This document shows positions 3,577 to 31,084 of a DNA stretch of 44,829 nt, one piece after another (positions within the stretch are counted from its first letter, which is position 1; each line of letters starts with the position of its first letter). Both the position numbers and the translations under genes were made by a program. Under the pieces are notes generated by a model that saw nothing but the letters and a program-made list of their open reading frames with translations, was not told where the DNA came from and did not search any database. The stretch is from Escherichia phage vB_Eco_Lzu_P3. The stretch lies in sequence record PQ295796, one strand, 5' to 3'.

Positions 3577-4677
3577 TTAGGACGCTGTGGTCGCGGTCAG
3601 CGTAACCAGTACGCCCGCCGTTTCCTTGATGTGACGGGTAGGCACTGCCTGTGCGGCCTGGGTCTTACGACGGCCTTTAGTATCGCCATCACCAACGGCG
3701 CCAACATCCTGCACGGTTGCCGGTGCGTTGTCCACCTGGCCCTGGTCCAGTTCCCAGTTAGCGGAAGTGGTAATATCGTCCAGTTTGAACGAGCGAACAC
3801 CTTCGATCGGAGTACGAGCGGACGCCTTCAGACGATAGCCTTTAACAGCCACGTTGAAGTCGAACTCGCCCTGCCACCAGCGCTCAATGTTCTCGTTACC
3901 ACCTTTTTCCTGCGCCAGCATATCAAGGCCATTGGTGGTGACTGCAACCGCGCCAGGGACCAGACCCAGCATTTTACCAGCACCCATTGCATCGGCAGCG
4001 GCATCGGAGATAATGAAACGGCGGCCCAGGCCATCGCCCATTACCTGCAGATCGCCGATCGCGAATACCTGCTCGGCAGATGGAAGCGCCTGGTAAGCAA
4101 TGAAGTTTGCCCAGGTAACGCCGTCCATAAACCAGGACTTAATCAAAGACGCCTGATCGCCGAACTTAGAAGCCGCCAGCGGGAAGTCTGCCAGGGTCGG
4201 GAAGGTACGACCGCCAACGCCGTCAACGCGCGCCGGTTGGGTGTAGTTTGCCGCTGCGTTGCTTTCAATAGCGGCTTTGCCCGCACCGATACCAGCTTTG
4301 AGGTAATGCAGCATAATCGCTTGAGTAGCCTGTGCCGCAATCTCAGCCGCAACGCTGTTAACGTTGGTTTCGATCTTAGCCATCATGGCCTTAGTGATTG
4401 CTACCGGACCCACTTTCGCGGAAAGGTTAACCGAGTTGGTCAGCATACGCGCCAGCACTTTTGCGGTCGCTGGAGTACCGACAGGGGCGTAGGCGTTACG
4501 GTCGGTAACGAGGTTGGCGATCAAGCCTACGGACATTTTTTCTACAACGTCCTTCAGCACTTCACCCGTGCCGAGAACAACAGCGCCGTTAGCGGCAGCG
4601 TTGAACACGTTCAGGTTATCGGGGATCATTTGCGTAACCGCGGTGACGAGTTTACGCTGGAACACTGTTAAAGACAT
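3577..4677 (-). CDS. Major capsid protein
   Basis: 366-aa ORF with AAGGA RBS, preceded by a scaffold-like gene and followed by a strong intrinsic terminator. Size and position are typical of a major capsid gene. Confidence 0.7.
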   Translation of the reverse strand: MSLTVFQRKLVTAVTQMIPDNLNVFNAAANGAVVLGTGEVLKDVVEKMSVGLIANLVTDRNAYAPVGTPATAKVLARMLTNSVNLSAKVGPVAITKAMMAKIETNVNSVAAEIAAQATQAIMLHYLKAGIGAGKAAIESNAAANYTQPARVDGVGGRTFPTLADFPLAASKFGDQASLIKSWFMDGVTWANFIAYQALPSAEQVFAIGDLQVMGDGLGRRFIISDAAADAMGAGKMLGLVPGAVAVTTNGLDMLAQEKGGNENIERWWQGEFDFNVAVKGYRLKASARTPIEGVRSFKLDDITTSANWELDQGQVDNAPATVQDVGAVGDGDTKGRRKTQAAQAVPTRHIKETAGVLVTLTATTAS

Positions 4678-4774
4678 ATCGAAATCCTTTGAGTTGTGAG
4701 CATTCGCTCAGTGTCGTTAATGTTACCTTAGATTTACGCGCTCGCAAAATCGCCCGCTTTCGCTGGCGATCTGC

Positions 4775-5479
4775 TTACTCGTCGTCGCCCATTTTAGCGA
4801 TGATTTCACCCGCCTGTTTCGTCAAGTCAGTGATACCGAAGCTATGACCCATAGTGATTTTAGACTTCACATCTTCGACGACCTGCGTCGGTTTGCTCGG
4901 CGCACCACCGGCTGGCGTGCCTGCCAGGACAGATGCAAAATCGGCGTTACTACGGAACTCTTTTTCAAGTTCGTCCATAGTCAGCGCGGACGGTTTGCCG
5001 TCCTTCAATACCCGCACCTTCAAGCTGCCGTCTTCGCCGTCTTCCAGCGTTAGGCGGTCCATAACGTGGCGTTGCATGATACCCGCATTCTTACCGAACA
5101 GCTTCGATGCCAGGTCTTTGGCAGCGCTGCCGATGGTCAGGTCGTGGATCTGCTTGCGATAGGCTTCGATTTTCCCCGATGTGTCCGCTTCATGTTTTGC
5201 GAACTTATCTTTCCAGGACTTATCGATCGCTTCGAGGTCGCCATTTTTGCGCGCGGCGGCTTCCTCTTTCTCTTTCGCAAGGCGCTCCGCTTCGGCGCGA
5301 CGTTCGGCTTCTGCTTTCTTCTCGCTAACCAGCTTCGCGTTGTTGTCTTTCAGACCCTTGATTTCCGCCTGTACTTCTTCGGCGGTCATGAACGTGGATT
5401 TATACCCATCGCCATCGGCAACAAATAAAGCCTTCATGCCTTCTGGCAACGCGTCATATTCTGCTTTAGTAAGTTTCAT
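4775..5479 (-). CDS. Putative scaffolding protein
   Basis: Lys/Glu/Ala-rich, coiled-coil-like sequence (…KKAEAERRAEAERLAKEKEEAAARK…) immediately upstream of the capsid gene. Start moved to ATG at 5479 with AGGGGGA RBS. Confidence 0.5.
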   Translation of the reverse strand: MKLTKAEYDALPEGMKALFVADGDGYKSTFMTAEEVQAEIKGLKDNNAKLVSEKKAEAERRAEAERLAKEKEEAAARKNGDLEAIDKSWKDKFAKHEADTSGKIEAYRKQIHDLTIGSAAKDLASKLFGKNAGIMQRHVMDRLTLEDGEDGSLKVRVLKDGKPSALTMDELEKEFRSNADFASVLAGTPAGGAPSKPTQVVEDVKSKITMGHSFGITDLTKQAGEIIAKMGDDE

Positions 5480-9818: not shown

Positions 9819-11204
9819 TTAGTAGAAGTCTACGGTTGGAACAACGGCGATCGGACGAATCACAGGGAACAAGTGCGCAATAGGGTAGCCCGCCGCGTCA
9901 TTCATGTGGTCCACACCGGCAGTTTTATCCGGTTCGCCTTTCTTCAGGTCGTACACCTGCTGTTCCAGACATTTCGCTAGTGTAGGGCATTTATCCAGGT
10001 TGACAAAATACTGGCGCACACCCTTCGAGTTGCACATCATCGTATTCATCGCGATAAGTCTGTCTTTCACAGGCGGGTTAACGCTGTCATATTCCACATC
10101 GAAGCCCGCGTCTTCCAGTTGTGCGATATCGGACGACGACGCGTTGACCGTCTTGCGGGATTTGCCACTGCTATCCGGGTAAACGACGACCCTACCGGCG
10201 GCACAATGTTCCGGGTAGCGCTCTTCGATCGCCTCAATCATAGCCGGGGTGTCAAACAGGTCCACAAATTCATCCACCGCGTGAATCTCGTCGCGGAACT
10301 CCTTGTTCTCGGTAACTCGCTGCCGTCTGACGTACACAACCGCCGCCATCTTCGTGACGTTAAAGTCCATACCGATAATCAGCGTGTCGTCCGGCTGCAC
10401 TTCTTCGGTGCTGGCGTTCTCCTCGCGGTTGAACATCTTGTACACCGCGCCCGACGTAAGGTTAACAAACAGGCCGTTCAGGTACGCATCAATCAGGTTA
10501 GCCGGGTACTGACTGCGCAGCGTGTCGATAAAGTCCGCCGGTAAATGGTGGTTGTCCGTGGTCTTCGCCCGGATCAAGCGTTTCTGGTTGTCTTTCTCCA
10601 CCTCGAAAATTTGGTACATCGCCCGGTAGCCTTCAGGCGTTGACACGATGACGAACTGGCGGACGAAGCCAGCACGCAGACGACCGAGCAATTTGTGATA
10701 TGCCGCCAGCGCGACGTCTTGCTTCGTAGTGTCGAATTCATCGGCAACAATCCACGCGGCGTTGACCCCGATCAGGCGGGTATAGTTCTCCATTGATTCA
10801 CAGATAACGCGTGTCCATTTCCCTTTCACCAGCACGTTATAGATCTTGTCCTGCTTATTGAACTTCCACCGGAATCCAGCCTCATCAAACGCCTTTTCCA
10901 ATTCCGGGTACATGATTTTAACCAGGAGGGGAATAGTCGGTTCTGTAACGATGCCGTCATGACCGGGGTTAAGGGTTAAAAGCTGGATGACCTTACGCGC
11001 AGCGACCCACGACTTTCCACCACCGAAGCCGGAACACAGGCCGAGGATTTTAGTCTTCGTGTCGCGCAGTAGTTCAACCTGGTGCGGCAAGCAATCAGGC
11101 TGGTAAAGGCGGACGGCCTGCGCAACGCGTGTTGGGCGTGGCGGTCGGTTGCGCTTTGCGATCGCGCGTTCCAGTGCGCGGTGTTCTGCCGCATAGTTAC
11201 GCAT
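9819..11204 (-). CDS. Terminase large subunit
   Basis: 461 aa with an N-terminal P-loop-like motif (GFGGGKS) and a C-terminal nuclease-like region. Start codon overlaps the small-subunit stop (ATGA). Confidence 0.8.
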   Translation of the reverse strand: MRNYAAEHRALERAIAKRNRPPRPTRVAQAVRLYQPDCLPHQVELLRDTKTKILGLCSGFGGGKSWVAARKVIQLLTLNPGHDGIVTEPTIPLLVKIMYPELEKAFDEAGFRWKFNKQDKIYNVLVKGKWTRVICESMENYTRLIGVNAAWIVADEFDTTKQDVALAAYHKLLGRLRAGFVRQFVIVSTPEGYRAMYQIFEVEKDNQKRLIRAKTTDNHHLPADFIDTLRSQYPANLIDAYLNGLFVNLTSGAVYKMFNREENASTEEVQPDDTLIIGMDFNVTKMAAVVYVRRQRVTENKEFRDEIHAVDEFVDLFDTPAMIEAIEERYPEHCAAGRVVVYPDSSGKSRKTVNASSSDIAQLEDAGFDVEYDSVNPPVKDRLIAMNTMMCNSKGVRQYFVNLDKCPTLAKCLEQQVYDLKKGEPDKTAGVDHMNDAAGYPIAHLFPVIRPIAVVPTVDFY

Positions 11205-11755
11205 TATTCACCCTGGCCTTTGCCGGTAGGTTCCACTACGACGTCGCCGTTATCATCTTCGTCGTCGTCCAGCGTTACATCGTCGCGGACGCCGTGGTTT
11301 GCTTTAAGCAGGAACGTAGCGAAGCCTGCCGCGATGGTCACGCCGCCAGCTTCCATCAGGAAAGTTTTCTGCAACTCCATAGCGTCCGCCATCGCCTCGG
11401 CGAACTCCTCATGCGCACGCGCCCAGCGATACAGGCAAGCTACGCCCACGCCGATTTCCGCGGCAAATCGACCGAAGGTTGGCATTTTGTTGCGGGGGAT
11501 TACTTGCGCAGCGCCTTTATCGGAGTAGTTTACCTGCCAGGCGTCGGCATCGGCAAAATAGCGGCGAAGCTGGTCGCAGTAAACGGATCGGTAGTCAGTA
11601 GGGCGTCCACATTTGCCGCCTTTACGGCGCTTTCCGTACTCGATTTCAGGTCCGAGATTGGTATGCTCGGTTTGCTCGCCTGGTTTACGGCGCGGGGTTA
11701 CTGCTACTCGTCCGTCCAGTTTGGCGCGTCGGCCCTTAACTTTGATTTCTGCCAT
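11204..11755 (-). CDS. Terminase small subunit
   Basis: Contains GRPTDY…MPTFGRFAAEIGV…LYRWARAHEEF, resembling the HTH region of terminase small subunits. Start is uncertain: ATG 11755 or 11776, or further upstream. Confidence 0.55.
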   Translation of the reverse strand: MAEIKVKGRRAKLDGRVAVTPRRKPGEQTEHTNLGPEIEYGKRRKGGKCGRPTDYRSVYCDQLRRYFADADAWQVNYSDKGAAQVIPRNKMPTFGRFAAEIGVGVACLYRWARAHEEFAEAMADAMELQKTFLMEAGGVTIAAGFATFLLKANHGVRDDVTLDDDEDDNGDVVVEPTGKGQGE

Positions 11756-11885
11756 GATATAAGCCCTTTTGTTCATATGTGCCGACCATCGGCAACATAG
11801 GAGACGGCCCTGCCATCTAAGGGGGATTATAACAGGCACAAAAAAGCCCACCAAATCGGCAGGCTGGGAGGCTTACCGGTTGCCG

Positions 11886-13028
11886 TTACTTCAACATTTC
11901 CGGGCTAATGGTTAAGCGCGCTACTTCGCCGTAGTTGGCGCTGTAGGTAATGACGTTGGCGCTGCGACCGGACATCCAACCGCCACGACTGGCGTAGGCG
12001 TCTTTCGCCGCGAGCGTCCGGTGCTGTTCAACAATCATGTTGCGGGATTCAACAATCTTCTGGTGGTGCAAATGGCCTACGTGCGCGTAGCTGTATTCGC
12101 TCGACCCGAACGCCTGTCTGAATTTAGCGATCATAACCTGCTCGATAACATCGAATCGCGCTTTGTGCCCGTGGTGGAAAAATAGCGTAGTCTTACCGTG
12201 CTGCACCATCTTGTAGACGTCCGGGGACGTGTCCACATCGACGCGCGGCTCGTTCTCATACAAGGTATTGAACATCTCAGCAAGCCAAATCATACCGGAT
12301 TCGTCATGATTACCCTGGACGATTAGCAGTTTGACTTTGTAGTGTTTTTGCAGCGCAAGTTCTACGACGTTGCGCACCATGCGAATCATGTAGCGGACCA
12401 ACTTCTGGTACCGGGTGTCGGCGTCCAATACGTGCCCGCTGGCAGGGGTGACGGCATCGAGACTATCAAAGTGGGCCATATCCCCGAGGATGTTGATCAC
12501 GGCAGTGCCTGCGTCTGGTGCGCGTGCGAAGGCTTCGACAAACCAGCGGTAGAACAGGTCTTCGGCGATCGCCATATCCCAATCTTCTCCAGTCTCCTCG
12601 CCCCATGCCAGCATACCCAGGTGGAAGTCGGACACAGTGTACAGGTTGAGCAAGTCGAGCGCCTGGGTATGCTGGCATGGGGCGTTTACTGGCGCTGCCG
12701 GTGTGATTTCGCTGTTCATACCATCGACAACAGCACGCATGGCTTCGAGTTGGTGCTCCTTATCCTGCTCAGTGATGACCCACGACATGACCTCTTCGCC
12801 ATTGCCGCGCACCAGGGCCGATACGCGCTTAACCCCAAACCCATCGGCAACGCGCTTACGGATCACGGCATCATTGCCGTGCCCAATTCCTTTTTTCGAT
12901 AGGCGGGCTTTCCGCATGTAGACGTTACGAAGTGCAATGCCGTATTTCTTCGCAATCTCTTTAACCGTAGTCCCTGCCTGAATTTCTGCGATCAATTGCT
13001 CATCGGTGATTTTAGTTTGCGGGTGCAT
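11886..13028 (-). CDS. Calcineurin-like metallophosphoesterase with N-terminal HTH domain
   Basis: Phosphoesterase motifs are visible in the translation: DFHLG, ILGDMAHFD, LLIVQGNHDE, FHHGH, GHLHH. The N-terminus has an HTH-like segment (TTVKEIAKKYGIALRNVYMRKARL). Confidence 0.6.
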   Translation of the reverse strand: MHPQTKITDEQLIAEIQAGTTVKEIAKKYGIALRNVYMRKARLSKKGIGHGNDAVIRKRVADGFGVKRVSALVRGNGEEVMSWVITEQDKEHQLEAMRAVVDGMNSEITPAAPVNAPCQHTQALDLLNLYTVSDFHLGMLAWGEETGEDWDMAIAEDLFYRWFVEAFARAPDAGTAVINILGDMAHFDSLDAVTPASGHVLDADTRYQKLVRYMIRMVRNVVELALQKHYKVKLLIVQGNHDESGMIWLAEMFNTLYENEPRVDVDTSPDVYKMVQHGKTTLFFHHGHKARFDVIEQVMIAKFRQAFGSSEYSYAHVGHLHHQKIVESRNMIVEQHRTLAAKDAYASRGGWMSGRSANVITYSANYGEVARLTISPEMLK

Positions 13029-13089
13029 ATTTAATTAATTCCTGATTAGTGGACCGTGGACAATATATCACGGTCCGTATGGCGGCGGG

Positions 13090-13170
13090 CTATATCAATT
13101 CGCAAATAACCATGCCGATAAAAGCCGCGGTGGTCCAGATCGCTAATACCCAAATATCTTTACGTGCCAT
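13090..13170 (-). CDS. Candidate micro-ORF encoding a 26-aa hydrophobic peptide (MARKDIWVLAIWTTAAFIGMVICELI)
   Basis: Not in the ORF track because it is under 60 aa. Has a strong GAGAGGAG RBS 8 nt upstream of the ATG, a sigma70-like promoter upstream and a terminator further upstream. Confidence 0.3.
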   Translation of the reverse strand: MARKDIWVLAIWTTAAFIGMVICELI

Positions 13171-13199
13171 CTTTATTACTCCTCTCGTTGATTGGTCGC

Positions 13200-13229
13200 A
13201 GTATGGCGTCTATGTTGGTTGCAAGTCAA
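13200..13229 (-). promoter_or_regulatory. Promoter TTGACT-N18-CATACT (minus strand), with TGCAACCAA in the spacer
   Basis: Lies upstream of the candidate micro-ORF and the phosphoesterase/terminase genes. Confidence 0.35.
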
Positions 13230-13233
13230 GCAA

Positions 13234-13258
13234 TAAAAAGCCCGGAATTAACCGGGCT
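13234..13258 (-). terminator. Intrinsic terminator after the Big_2 gene
   Basis: AGCCCGG-aattaa-CCGGGCT stem followed on the minus strand by TTTTTATT. Confidence 0.55.
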
Positions 13259-13265
13259 TGTTGGT

Positions 13266-13667
13266 TTACTCTGCTGCCGTTACTGTGAAGCCTGCGTCAG
13301 CCTGCACCCCGCTACCGTCGGACGCCACCCAAACGATGCGGACGTTACCCGCAGCTTTCGCGGTGATTTCGCCGGTAGTCGGATTGATTGAGGCGCGGTT
13401 AGGGTTAGCCGACACCCACGACCCGGCTTTGTTGGTCGCGTCGGATGGCAGGATGGCAACCGTCGCGGTGGCTGTCTCTCCAACGGCGGCGGTAACTGGG
13501 TCGATGGTGACGGTCGCACTTGTCACCGGCTTGCCTTCCGGAACGGCCTTATCAAAGACGCCTGAGACATTCATATCCCCGGCCAGGATGCGGCGCGCTT
13601 CTGGGTTCTGCACTGCGGGCAGTGTCTTGATAATGCGTTCTTTACGTCGCAAGATCGAATCTAACAT
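13266..13667 (-). CDS. Bacterial Ig-like (Big_2) domain protein
   Basis: Start moved to internal ATG 13667 (GAGGGGA RBS) so it does not overlap the lysozyme gene. C-terminal region has a Big_2-like pattern (…ATVTIDPVTAAVGETATATVAILPSDATNK…ITAKAAGNVRIVWVASDG…). Confidence 0.45.
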   Translation of the reverse strand: MLDSILRRKERIIKTLPAVQNPEARRILAGDMNVSGVFDKAVPEGKPVTSATVTIDPVTAAVGETATATVAILPSDATNKAGSWVSANPNRASINPTTGEITAKAAGNVRIVWVASDGSGVQADAGFTVTAAE

Positions 13668-13683
13668 ATCGTGTCCCCTCGTA

Positions 13684-14175
13684 TTATGCTGCGTTACGAC
13701 CGATTCGCTCGGCAACGTCCCACTGCTTACCATCAAACAACGCCTGTCTGCCGATTGCACGGCGTACCAGACCCTTAAGCACTTCCCCGCCTTGCTTGCG
13801 GAACTGCGGCAGAGTAGCACGGACCTTCGCCCAGTCGCCCAACCGCACCGCATCATCGAAATCATTCGCGACGTCATCCGGTACGATCGGACCAGGACCG
13901 GCGTTGATTACCAGGTCCACCAGCGCGTCGAATTGCGCTTGATTAATGCTCGGATGTGCGTATTTGTTCACCCAGTCCTCGGCATACGCCACATCGCGCT
14001 TGAGTAGCTCCAGCGCTTCTGCACGTGTAATGCTTCGTGGCGGATTAGTGCCGGTGTGCCCATAACCCCAGGTGTACAGGCCGCGGGCCTGCTCTTTCTT
14101 GGTCGCGAAATACGGCACCGGGCTGAAAGCCTCCCATGCTGCCGTAAATCTTAGACCGTTGTCACTGAATCGCAT
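13684..14175 (-). CDS. Endolysin (phage lysozyme, GH24-like)
   Basis: 163 aa with a T4-lysozyme-like N-terminal catalytic region (…EAFSPVPYF…GLYTWGYGHTG…). Start overlaps the stop of the upstream membrane-protein gene. Confidence 0.7.
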   Translation of the reverse strand: MRFSDNGLRFTAAWEAFSPVPYFATKKEQARGLYTWGYGHTGTNPPRSITRAEALELLKRDVAYAEDWVNKYAHPSINQAQFDALVDLVINAGPGPIVPDDVANDFDDAVRLGDWAKVRATLPQFRKQGGEVLKGLVRRAIGRQALFDGKQWDVAERIGRNAA

Positions 14176-14407
14176 GTTTTACCCCATTCAAAACAGCATT
14201 ACGCAGTGTGCGCAACGCAAACAGCCATATTAACGCGGTCCAGGTGGTATCAGATACGTCTCCTGTTTGCAACAATCCGATAATACAGACCATTGCCGTT
14301 AACAGATACAGCACCCGGCCGAAAATGCCATCCCGGACGGACGGCGCATACACGTTAAACAGGGACGAAGCCCCGATGATAACAAACAACAGGACGGAGA
14401 TAATCAT
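14162..14407 (-). CDS. Holin/antiholin-like small membrane protein
   Basis: 81 aa with two or three hydrophobic segments, immediately upstream of the endolysin. G-rich RBS. Confidence 0.5.
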   Translation of the reverse strand: MIISVLLFVIIGASSLFNVYAPSVRDGIFGRVLYLLTAMVCIIGLLQTGDVSDTTWTALIWLFALRTLRNAVLNGVKHAIQ

Positions 14408-14694
14408 TTTGCACCCCCCGGAAGTCGGAACGACGCAATAGTCTCCCTGATCCGGTCGGCGATTGGCATCCAGAAAATTGCGGTCACGAAGCCCAAACCG
14501 GCGACAGTGCGCTCACCCGACAAACCAGCCCACTCAGCGATAGCCGGTGCGCCAAATATGGCACACAGGAAGCCAACTACGACATACAAAACGAAGTTTA
14601 GCGGCCCTTTCGTAGCCTCACCATGAATGCGTGCGCCTACGAAGCCACCCGCCAGACATGCCAGGGCGAATAGCCACTCGTTTAGCTTATCCAT
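14404..14694 (-). CDS. Holin-like membrane protein
   Basis: 96 aa with about three predicted transmembrane segments, in the lysis cassette. The start codon abuts a terminator hairpin and has no obvious SD. Confidence 0.45.
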   Translation of the reverse strand: MDKLNEWLFALACLAGGFVGARIHGEATKGPLNFVLYVVVGFLCAIFGAPAIAEWAGLSGERTVAGLGFVTAIFWMPIADRIRETIASFRLPGGAK

Positions 14695-30412: not shown

Positions 30413-30617
30413 CCGCGACCCCGCGGTCGTAGACCAAATGCAAAGAGACTACTGTATTGATCCGCGACGCAATCGGGTAGTGCGCGCGTCTCGCCCCGAA
30501 TACATCCTGGGCCTTGACCTCACCGGTTGGCTTGTCATTACTCAGCGTTGCCATTTCGTGTGCAACTCCTTTACTGCGCGAAGCGCCCGTTACACCCTTA
30601 TTGAGAGTTTAAAATGA
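30393..30617 (+). CDS. Hypothetical protein (74 aa, TTG start)
   Basis: AAGGAG RBS 7 nt upstream of TTG 30393. Confidence 0.3.
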   Translation: MNILIVDRDPAVVDQMQRDYCIDPRRNRVVRASRPEYILGLDLTGWLVITQRCHFVCNSFTARSARYTLIESLK

Positions 30618-31084
30618 AATTACTGATTTGCGATTTGGATGGCGTTATTAACGGTTCAAGCGATGCGCGTGCCGACTTGGTGCCTGGCATAAAAACTAAA
30701 TCCACCTTTTGGGCGAAGTGGCACAAGGCGCACGTCCGCGAAGACCTTAACATGGATATGCTGCCGCTACTGCGCATGTATAAAGAGCAAGGCTTCGAGA
30801 TCGCGTATCTGACCAACCGGCAGCGAGAATGTTGGGACACCACCGCCGAGCAATTGGAGGTCTTCCCAGTAGGCCGGTTGTTTATGCGCCACATGCTGGA
30901 CGACACCCCGCCGCCTGAGTTTAAAGCGTGCGCCGTGTTCAAAATGGTATGTTACGCGGACGTGTCTGAACTGGTCATCATTGAAGATTGCGAGAAGAAC
31001 ATCGCGGCAATTCGTCGGGCGTGTAGTGATTTGGTCCCGAAAATTTACGCAATAAACGTTGCAAAATTCACTTGCAACCAATAG
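30614..31084 (+). CDS. HAD-superfamily hydrolase (putative nucleotidase/phosphatase)
   Basis: N-terminal motif I LLICDLDGVI (DxDG). GAGAG RBS. ATGA overlap with the upstream gene. Confidence 0.5.
   Translation: MKLLICDLDGVINGSSDARADLVPGIKTKSTFWAKWHKAHVREDLNMDMLPLLRMYKEQGFEIAYLTNRQRECWDTTAEQLEVFPVGRLFMRHMLDDTPPPEFKACAVFKMVCYADVSELVIIEDCEKNIAAIRRACSDLVPKIYAINVAKFTCNQ

Follow-up and report, generated by a model that had tools for sequence, protein, structure and literature searches.

A helix-turn-helix metallophosphoesterase gene next to the terminase genes of a Dhillonvirus: domain architecture, family and candidate role in phage DNA metabolism

Mre11 engages DNA through a capping domain and a Rad50-type ATPase. 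The Rad50, SbcC and gp46 ATPase partners of Mre11, SbcD and phage T4 gp47 are usually encoded adjacently to them, and T4 gp46/47 are annotated as needed for recombination and host DNA degradation. Here we describe a gene of Escherichia phage vB_Eco_Lzu_P3 (sequence record PQ295796; the whole stretch of 44,829 nucleotides analysed is called the window below), whose product was compared with these nucleases. The gene corresponds to the open reading frame (ORF) 11886..13028 on the minus strand of the ORF list; it starts with ATG, ends with a stop codon at 11886-11888, and encodes a protein of 380 amino acids (aa), in which a helix-turn-helix (HTH), a β-hairpin-helix module and a metallophosphoesterase (MPE) domain with an intact active site follow one another. 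The reading we favour is that of a nuclease-type phosphodiesterase acting in phage DNA metabolism, independent of Rad50 and tethered by its HTH; as substrate and role are inferred only, we give this reading about an even chance.

Catalytic domain, N-terminal modules and structural relatives

The MPE catalytic domain covers aa 126-380 (11889..12653, on the minus strand, as are all features of the gene listed below). All five motifs of the calcineurin-like MPE superfamily (D-x-H, GD-xx-D/H, GNH-D/E, H and GH-x-H) are present in the sequence: SDFHLG (motif I, aa 133-138, 12615-12632), GDMAHFD (motif II, aa 182-188, 12465-12485), GNHDE (motif III, aa 239-243, 12300-12314), HHGH (motif IV, aa 285-288, 12165-12176) and GHLHH (motif V, aa 318-322, 12063-12077). 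Conservation was assessed in an alignment of 63 sequences, comprising the protein itself and 62 diverse homologs with 32-49% identity to it. Residues D134, H136, G182, D183, N240, H241, H286, G318 and H321, metal ligands included, are invariant in this alignment, and the conservation of the motifs goes far beyond chance. Motif II is followed by a family-specific insert, AVTPASGHVLDADTR (aa 192-206, 12411..12455, consensus VTP.SGH.LDAD.R), in which T194 is invariant and L201, D202 and R206 are almost invariant; T4 gp47 lacks this insert in both hhalign and MAFFT alignments. Another conserved segment, TLAAKDAYASRGGW (aa 338-351, 11976..12017), follows motif V and is common to T4 gp47, where it aligns to TLTAGDENDPRGFW both with the family profile in hhalign and in MAFFT.

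The N-terminal part of the protein consists of a tri-helical HTH (aa 9-45, 12894..13004), a flexible linker (aa 46-60, 12849..12893), and a family-specific long β-hairpin (aa 64-88) with a helix (aa 90-106; together 12711..12848), as assigned by DSSP on the models. The full AlphaFold model, built from the 63-sequence alignment, had a mean predicted local distance difference test score (pLDDT) of 91.7 and a predicted template modelling score of 0.81, with helices at 9-17, 22-29 and 33-45, a disordered linker at 49-57, the β-hairpin at 64-88, the helix at 90-106 and the MPE core at 126-380; a separate model of residues 1-112 reproduced the same N-terminal elements. The three HTH helices were modelled at pLDDT 93-95, while pLDDT in the weakly conserved linker fell below 50 (aa 49-57 in the full model, aa 51-54 in the N-terminal one). 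The HTH has the three-helix fold with a recognition helix of the resolvase, LuxR-GerE or sigma-70 region 4 type. When family members were scanned singly, the best matches were to Sigma70_r4_2 (1.5e-9; 12 members), GerE (2.4e-8) and HTH_1 (14 members), and a hidden Markov model built from the HTH columns detected the domain in 113 of 142 cluster representatives and in 54 of 74 homologs from bacterial genomes. The HTH segment (aa 1-48) is basic, with an isoelectric point of 10.1 vs 6.0 for the catalytic domain. The N-terminal HTH is thus genuine, and its basic isoelectric point is an indirect indication that it may bind DNA. The β-hairpin has the consensus G..KG.ST.Y...G....WVK with almost invariant G77 and W83, and the β-hairpin-helix module was found in 88-97% of homologs, including a variant of Campylobacter phages that has no HTH and begins directly at the β-hairpin; searches with the module gave no specific structural match.

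Pfam scans of the single protein remained below the curated score thresholds, with 20.3 bits for Metallophos (cut-off 21.5, E 8e-4) and 22.8 bits for Metallophos_2 (cut-off 27, E 1e-4), and the best HTH family match had E 0.03. By these scores the family is a divergent MPE lying slightly under the Pfam gathering thresholds, and an ordinary domain search alone would therefore be equivocal. A full-length match was obtained with PHROG 704, 'DNA repair exonuclease' (E 8.9e-160, aa 5-380 vs profile positions 2-390 of 390), a name that is a computational label.

The model showed the β-sandwich fold of MPEs, and its best Foldseek match was Mre11 (3e-8), followed by the small subunit DP1 of archaeal DNA polymerase D (PolD); the structural neighbours comprise PolD-DP1, SbcD and Mre11. 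On these matches, the modelled fold is clearly other than that of a protein phosphatase and leans to the nuclease branch, with a modest margin over small phosphodiesterases. In hhalign comparisons of the family profile with single protein sequences, T4 gp47 reached a probability of 85.9% (E 5e-6, 187 columns, gp47 residues 3-220), and E. coli YfcE, SbcD, CpdA and LpxH reached 7.7, 2.8, 1.0 and 0.4%, respectively. Searches of the PDB did not settle the subfamily: with the single sequence they returned spurious repeat-protein matches only, and with the family profile weak HTH matches and marginal matches to SbcD/Mre11 and nuclease MPEs at E ~1. NCBIfam gave no useful match.

The original prediction, made from the sequence alone, had assigned all MPE signature motifs and an N-terminal HTH-like segment to this ORF, and both assignments are confirmed by the motifs, the models and the profile matches. 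It had proposed a profile-based domain search, which proved sub-threshold in Pfam and gave a full-length match with PHROG 704, and a structure prediction to separate Mre11/SbcD-like from phosphatase-like folds, whose result leans to the Mre11 side. It had also named, as findings that would speak against it, the lack of an HTH and a generic protein phosphatase fold common at unrelated phage positions. An HTH was confirmed and the fold differs from that of a protein phosphatase; the gene does occur commonly at unrelated genome positions, as described below.

Family distribution and genomic context

Megablast of window positions 11000-14500 retrieved 156 phage records, nearly all of them Escherichia Dhillonviruses (HK578/JL1/SO-1-like siphophages), at 88-96% identity, which identifies the source phage, by its sequence, as a Dhillonvirus of the HK578/JL1-like coliphage type. 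The nearest deposited protein is a 'DNA repair exonuclease' of phage HH3 (99% identical); other Dhillonvirus copies are 95-99% identical, and ST16 of phage T1 shares 44% identity over 377 aa (E 6e-106). Relatives were found by tblastn in about 2,060 phage records, with hosts including Escherichia, Klebsiella, Salmonella, Vibrio and Campylobacter, and an exhaustive search yielded 4,632 clusters (at 50% identity) with E <= 1e-3, 1,117 of which had E <= 1e-30. The gene is persistent in 508 of 522 Drexlerviridae (PMC13164509). A scan of one genome per bacterial species, with an alignment of 10 sequences as the query, produced 120 relatives, many of which are embedded in large contigs or in complete chromosomes of alpha-, beta- and gamma-proteobacteria; hence the family also occurs in integrated elements, presumably prophages. 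Among 5,426 complete E. coli genomes, none contained near-identical DNA; the gene is therefore not one of an E. coli prophage. Names in public records conflict, including phosphoesterase, DNA repair exonuclease, oxidoreductase, phosphatase, DNA polymerase II small subunit, and winged-HTH protein. Although the original prediction implied something unusual, this is an ordinary, widespread and previously annotated phage gene of an already known family.

Some records deserve separate mention. Two of them, OQ221563.1 and NC_013600.1, are labelled 'Acinetobacter phage NJ01' and 'Sodalis phage SO-1' and are ~95% identical to E. coli Dhillonviruses over the region, and the cluster of 99%-class proteins also holds an 'Acinetobacter baumannii' entry from a 41-kb contig; the Acinetobacter and Sodalis host labels may reflect contamination or mis-assignment. 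In phage phiJLA23 (NC_047740.1) the match is limited to residues 6-100, the gene being apparently truncated or interrupted, while in Salmonella phage S119 (MH370372.1) a homing endonuclease is annotated beneath the match. HNH genes directly flank the gene in T1, Vibrio and Jerseyvirus loci. Truncated copies together with such neighbours suggest that homing endonucleases have invaded more than once.

The genes of close relatives are arranged as primase-helicase, small genes, two holins, lysozyme, small ORFs, the MPE gene, TerS, TerL and portal. PHROG and Pfam scans of the window ORFs placed the holins (14404-14694 and 14162-14407) and the lysozyme (13684-14175) upstream of the gene, and TerS (11204-~11776, within 11204-11854) and TerL (9819-11204) downstream, so the predicted location between lysis and terminase genes holds. 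Among the contexts compared, the gene lies directly upstream of terS in Dhillonvirus only; terminase adjacency is a feature of one genus. In T1, ST16 follows the helicase and Dam methylase genes and precedes an HNH gene, a small gene and the lysis cassette, ~16 kb from terS. Webervirus resembles T1 in that the gene closes the DNA-metabolism module, following helicase and Dam methylase; in Webervirus GZ9 it overlaps and directly precedes a gene for a 205-aa polynucleotide kinase. In Drexlerviridae without an SH3 gene, the next gene most often encodes polynucleotide kinase or deoxynucleoside monophosphate (dNMP) kinase (PMC13164509). The holin gene is five small genes downstream in one phage of Rogunavirinae; in a Rhodobacter phage the gene comes after a holin-endolysin, and in a Vibrio phage it is located between two endolysin-annotated genes. 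Jerseyvirus-like phages carry it in a small, moron-like opposite-strand island inside the tail module, with a superinfection-immunity gene and an anti-repressor, and in the Campylobacter myophage F336 it adjoins genes for DNA ligase and a Holliday-junction resolvase.

Neighbours in bacterial genomes were analysed by BLAST clustering over 76 loci, which gave a fragmented picture by itself, combined with Pfam scans of four ORFs on each side at 37 loci. The Pfam scans revealed, upstream, six endolysin families, Rz1-like spanins, NinG and a trypsin-like protease (7 loci), and, downstream, DUF1937, DUF4406, dNMP kinase, phage integrase (4 loci) and occasionally terminase or portal. The BLAST clusters contained GH24 lysozymes (14 loci), dNMP-kinase-like proteins within 8 ORFs (8), HD-domain proteins (4) and TerL at +6 to +8 (4). 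The trypsin-like serine protease has a lipoprotein-type signal and lies 1-8 ORFs upstream on the same strand in 8 of the 76 loci (Trypsin_2 in 7 of the 37), for example at 3780-4439 of locus L037; it may be part of the prophage lysis region.

Between the gene and terS, 20 nt past the stop codon, a terminator-like hairpin with a T-run was predicted on the minus strand by a consensus scan and inspection of the sequence (11845..11865). It is directly followed by a predicted extended -10 element, TGTTATAAT (11826..11834, minus strand), the likely promoter of the terminase/structural operon. Both elements are identical in JL1 and HH3, and in HH3 they are kept despite a 213-bp insertion before them (4609-4821 of the HH3 locus) with an extra 70-aa ORF, which the window and JL1 do not have. 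T1 ST16 likewise has an annotated terminator 3' of the gene. The conserved terminator and promoter, predicted as consensus matches, would insulate the gene transcriptionally from the terminase operon. Upstream of the gene, another terminator-like hairpin was predicted by the consensus scan after the Ig-domain ORF described below (13238..13259, minus strand) and is kept in JL1 and HH3. A weak promoter-like site was also found there by the consensus scan (TTGACT-18-CATACT, 13200..13229, minus strand, 9/12 matches); its -10 part is deleted in HH3, which makes it doubtful, and it was not relied on. The regional count of such promoter-like sites is no higher than in shuffled sequences. The start codon is preceded, at a distance of 22 nt, by an 8-bp inverted repeat, GGACCGTG-N10-CACGGTCC (13051-13076), whose arms match perfectly here and in HH3 and differ at one position in JL1. 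The repeat occurs once in the window, with 0 expected by chance, and might form an RNA hairpin or be bound by a protein. As an operator it was set aside, since the genome contains no other copy and the JL1 version is imperfect.

Two further ORFs upstream of the MPE gene were noted. The first, at 13266-~13680 on the minus strand inside ORF 13266..13877, encodes a protein consisting of a bacterial Ig-like domain on its own (Big_2, Pfam E 2e-10), which also matches PHROG 215, 'structural protein with Ig domain'. This ORF is directly 3' of the lysozyme gene, overlapping its 3' end in a different frame; relatives have only a short remnant at this site, labelled 'major tail protein' (55 aa in HH3). 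Its location is reminiscent of the stand-alone SH3 gene beside Drexlerviridae lysis cassettes (PMC13164509). The second, a mini-ORF of 26 codons, MARKDIWVLAIWTTAAFIGMVICELI (13090-13170, minus strand), lies between the lysis cassette and the MPE gene and has a strong ribosome-binding site, GAGAGGAG, at 13179-13186; the peptide is, from its sequence, hydrophobic and transmembrane-like. The mini-ORF is kept in JL1, while in HH3 its stop codon is mutated, extending the product to 52 aa with an overlap of the MPE gene start.

Candidate functions

In the reading we favour, the protein would be a two-metal, probably Mn2+-dependent phosphodiesterase acting on DNA, i.e., a nuclease, belonging to a clade of phages and prophages whose relationship to the nuclease domain of T4 gp47, Mre11 and SbcD is distant. 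The basic HTH on its flexible linker, together with the β-hairpin-helix module, would attach the catalytic domain to DNA and set its orientation. The enzyme could process DNA ends or replication and recombination intermediates, or it could take part in the breakdown of host DNA to dNMPs for reuse; it would probably stand outside the packaging motor. The place of the gene in T1 and Webervirus as the last of the DNA-metabolism genes, the ligase and resolvase neighbours in Campylobacter phage F336, the dNMP kinase and polynucleotide kinase neighbours and the dual role of T4 gp46/47 are consistent with such a function in DNA metabolism. Three roles had been proposed originally, namely a DNA-end-processing nuclease, a packaging accessory, and an enzyme degrading host signalling nucleotides as a counter-defence. 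A DNA nuclease fits best, given the PolD-DP1, SbcD and Mre11 neighbours, the gp47 profile match and the basic HTH, the activity itself being what we infer from them; the other two roles are unsupported, as set out below.

Several observations weigh against the nuclease reading. The MPE superfamily is promiscuous in function, the family profile fails to recognise E. coli SbcD, and the PDB and NCBIfam searches gave no sequence-level match to Mre11 or SbcD. Among the scanned ORFs of the source Dhillonvirus there is no dNMP kinase or polynucleotide kinase, and the kinase linkage is thus partial only. The recurrent lysis-cassette neighbourhood is not explained by a nuclease; this proximity may reflect only the place of the gene at the boundary between DNA-metabolism and late genes. 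Finally, a literature search found no biochemical or genetic study of any family member. As a separate observation on the source phage, a 156-aa ORF of its replication module (30614-31084, plus strand) has a sub-threshold match to Acid_phosphat_B, a HAD-superfamily acid phosphatase family (E 3.6e-5); by this match, its product is possibly a small nucleotidase or a polynucleotide 3'-phosphatase.

Bacterial Pnkp has an MPE phosphatase domain, and by analogy the protein could be an end-healing 3'-phosphatase or 2',3'-cyclic phosphodiesterase that works with a polynucleotide 5'-kinase in repairing tRNA or DNA ends cut by host defence nucleases. The overlapping kinase gene in Webervirus GZ9, the rank of polynucleotide kinase as one of the two commonest next genes in the Drexlerviridae without SH3 (PMC13164509) and the presence of Pnk in T1 speak for it. 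However, no polynucleotide kinase is annotated or found in the source Dhillonvirus, pnk of T1 (at 4.9 kb) is distant from ST16 (at 40.8 kb), and the HTH points to duplex DNA rather than RNA; we regard this role as unlikely. A role as a packaging accessory nuclease, helping terminase to recognise or cut concatemeric DNA, would have a parallel in HK97-like phages, which encode HNH proteins beside their terminases. It is suggested by the position of the gene immediately upstream of terS in Dhillonviruses and by TerL 6-8 ORFs downstream in 4 bacterial-genome loci, and the HTH could in principle recognise a pac-type site. Nevertheless, neither conserved linkage nor co-transcription with terminase was found: the conserved terminator and extended -10 promoter lie between the gene and terS, an additional ORF is tolerated in this interval in HH3, the T1, Webervirus and Rogunavirinae copies adjoin lysis rather than terminase genes (that of T1 being far from terS), the Jerseyvirus copy is in the tail module on the opposite strand, the Campylobacter copy neighbours DNA ligase, and prophage copies can adjoin integrase. 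Such a role is accordingly quite improbable.

The sigma-70 region 4-like and LuxR-like character of the HTH, the recurrence of the gene directly beside lysis cassettes in several phage families and the unique inverted repeat just upstream of the start codon might indicate a transcription regulator, for example of late or lysis genes, with the HTH as the main domain and the MPE domain as an accessory or sensory one. Yet the catalytic residues are all invariant in a family that comprises over 4,600 clusters (at 50% identity), which argues for catalysis and against a purely regulatory role; moreover, the Campylobacter-phage branch lacks the HTH, ~20-25% of members have none detectable, and the inverted repeat is neither perfect in JL1 nor recurrent in the genome. 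We consider a regulator very unlikely. Even less probable is a counter-defence phosphodiesterase destroying the signalling nucleotides of host immunity (CBASS, Pycsar, Thoeris, type III CRISPR). The moron-like island of the Jerseyvirus copy, with its superinfection-immunity gene and anti-repressor, would agree with this function, but the hhalign probability for CpdA is as low as stated above, the nearest relatives are DNA nucleases, and a conserved DNA-binding-type HTH is not expected in a small-molecule hydrolase. In addition, the gene persists as part of the core in whole phage families and does not have the patchy distribution of an accessory gene, and there was no PADLOC match, which is of weak relevance.

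Several other leads were rejected. The anti-Tmn of Dhillonvirus is another protein, ORF35, for which a rod-shaped fold is predicted. The Metis and PUA-Cal-HAD phosphoesterases of host DNA degradation are bacterial defence proteins outside this family, and the Stokar-Avihail escape-mutant study does not mention the gene. The retron Eco2 paper, in which Drexlerviridae and most Dhillonviruses are unrestricted by a tRNA-cutting retron, was not used, the correlation being too weak.

Returning to the nuclease reading, a more specific version can be proposed tentatively and is, in our opinion, possible rather than probable. It holds that the family is a distinct, very large clade of Rad50-free Mre11/gp47-type nucleases, in which the HTH and β-hairpin replace the cap and the ATPase clamp, and which account for a hitherto unassigned activity, the degradation of host DNA or the processing of DNA ends for dNMP salvage, in Dhillonviruses, T1-like and Jersey-like phages and many prophages of proteobacteria. 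The gene is core or persistent in T1-like Drexlerviridae, Dhillonvirus and Guernseyvirinae, i.e., in abundant virulent enterobacterial siphophages that are used in phage therapy and as laboratory models. If it does encode a self-sufficient, HTH-guided Mre11-like nuclease, this would be a minimal, Rad50-independent version of a universal DNA-repair nuclease, and would close a gap in the understanding of how these small phages deal with host DNA and with the intermediates of their own replication.

Comparison with known metallophosphoesterases

Lambda NinI and the other Ser/Thr protein phosphatases of the PPP type belong to the same superfamily, and NinI, like the protein described here, is a phage-encoded MPE near the late/lysis region. 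However, the GDxHG, GDxVDRG and GNHE motifs and the fold of PPP enzymes were not found in the protein. Nor did profile or fold comparison show an affinity to class III cyclic-nucleotide phosphodiesterases (CpdA, Rv0805). The archaeal PolD small subunit DP1, a 3'-5' proofreading exonuclease, is a structural neighbour, but its identity to the protein is only 13%, and no OB fold was detected in the latter. The source phage has no DP2 catalytic subunit and uses a family-A polymerase, and T1 is annotated with no polymerase. It is probably this fold resemblance to PolD DP1 that gave rise to the GenBank label 'DNA polymerase II small subunit'.

With T4 gp47, Mre11 and SbcD the protein shares the MPE nuclease domain with motifs I-V, related by sequence or structure, and with T4 gp47 also the segment TL.A.D....RG.W after motif V. 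Unlike these nucleases, it has no C-terminal capping domain, only 58 residues being located beyond motif V; the gp47 alignment ends at residue 220 of 339, and gp47 thus has 119 residues more. Nor did the source phage reveal a Rad50/SbcC/gp46 ATPase gene, every window ORF of at least 400 aa being assigned to something else (portal, TerL, primase-helicase, DUF2800 nuclease, PolA, SNF2 helicase and tail proteins). Compared with gp47, the protein adds the N-terminal HTH, the β-hairpin module and the VTP.SGH.LDAD.R insert. Its own family is PHROG 704, which includes ST16 of T1 (YP_003929.1) and gp03 of JL1 (YP_006990390.1); the members of this family have the same architecture of HTH, β-hairpin-helix and MPE domain and show no essential difference from the protein described here.

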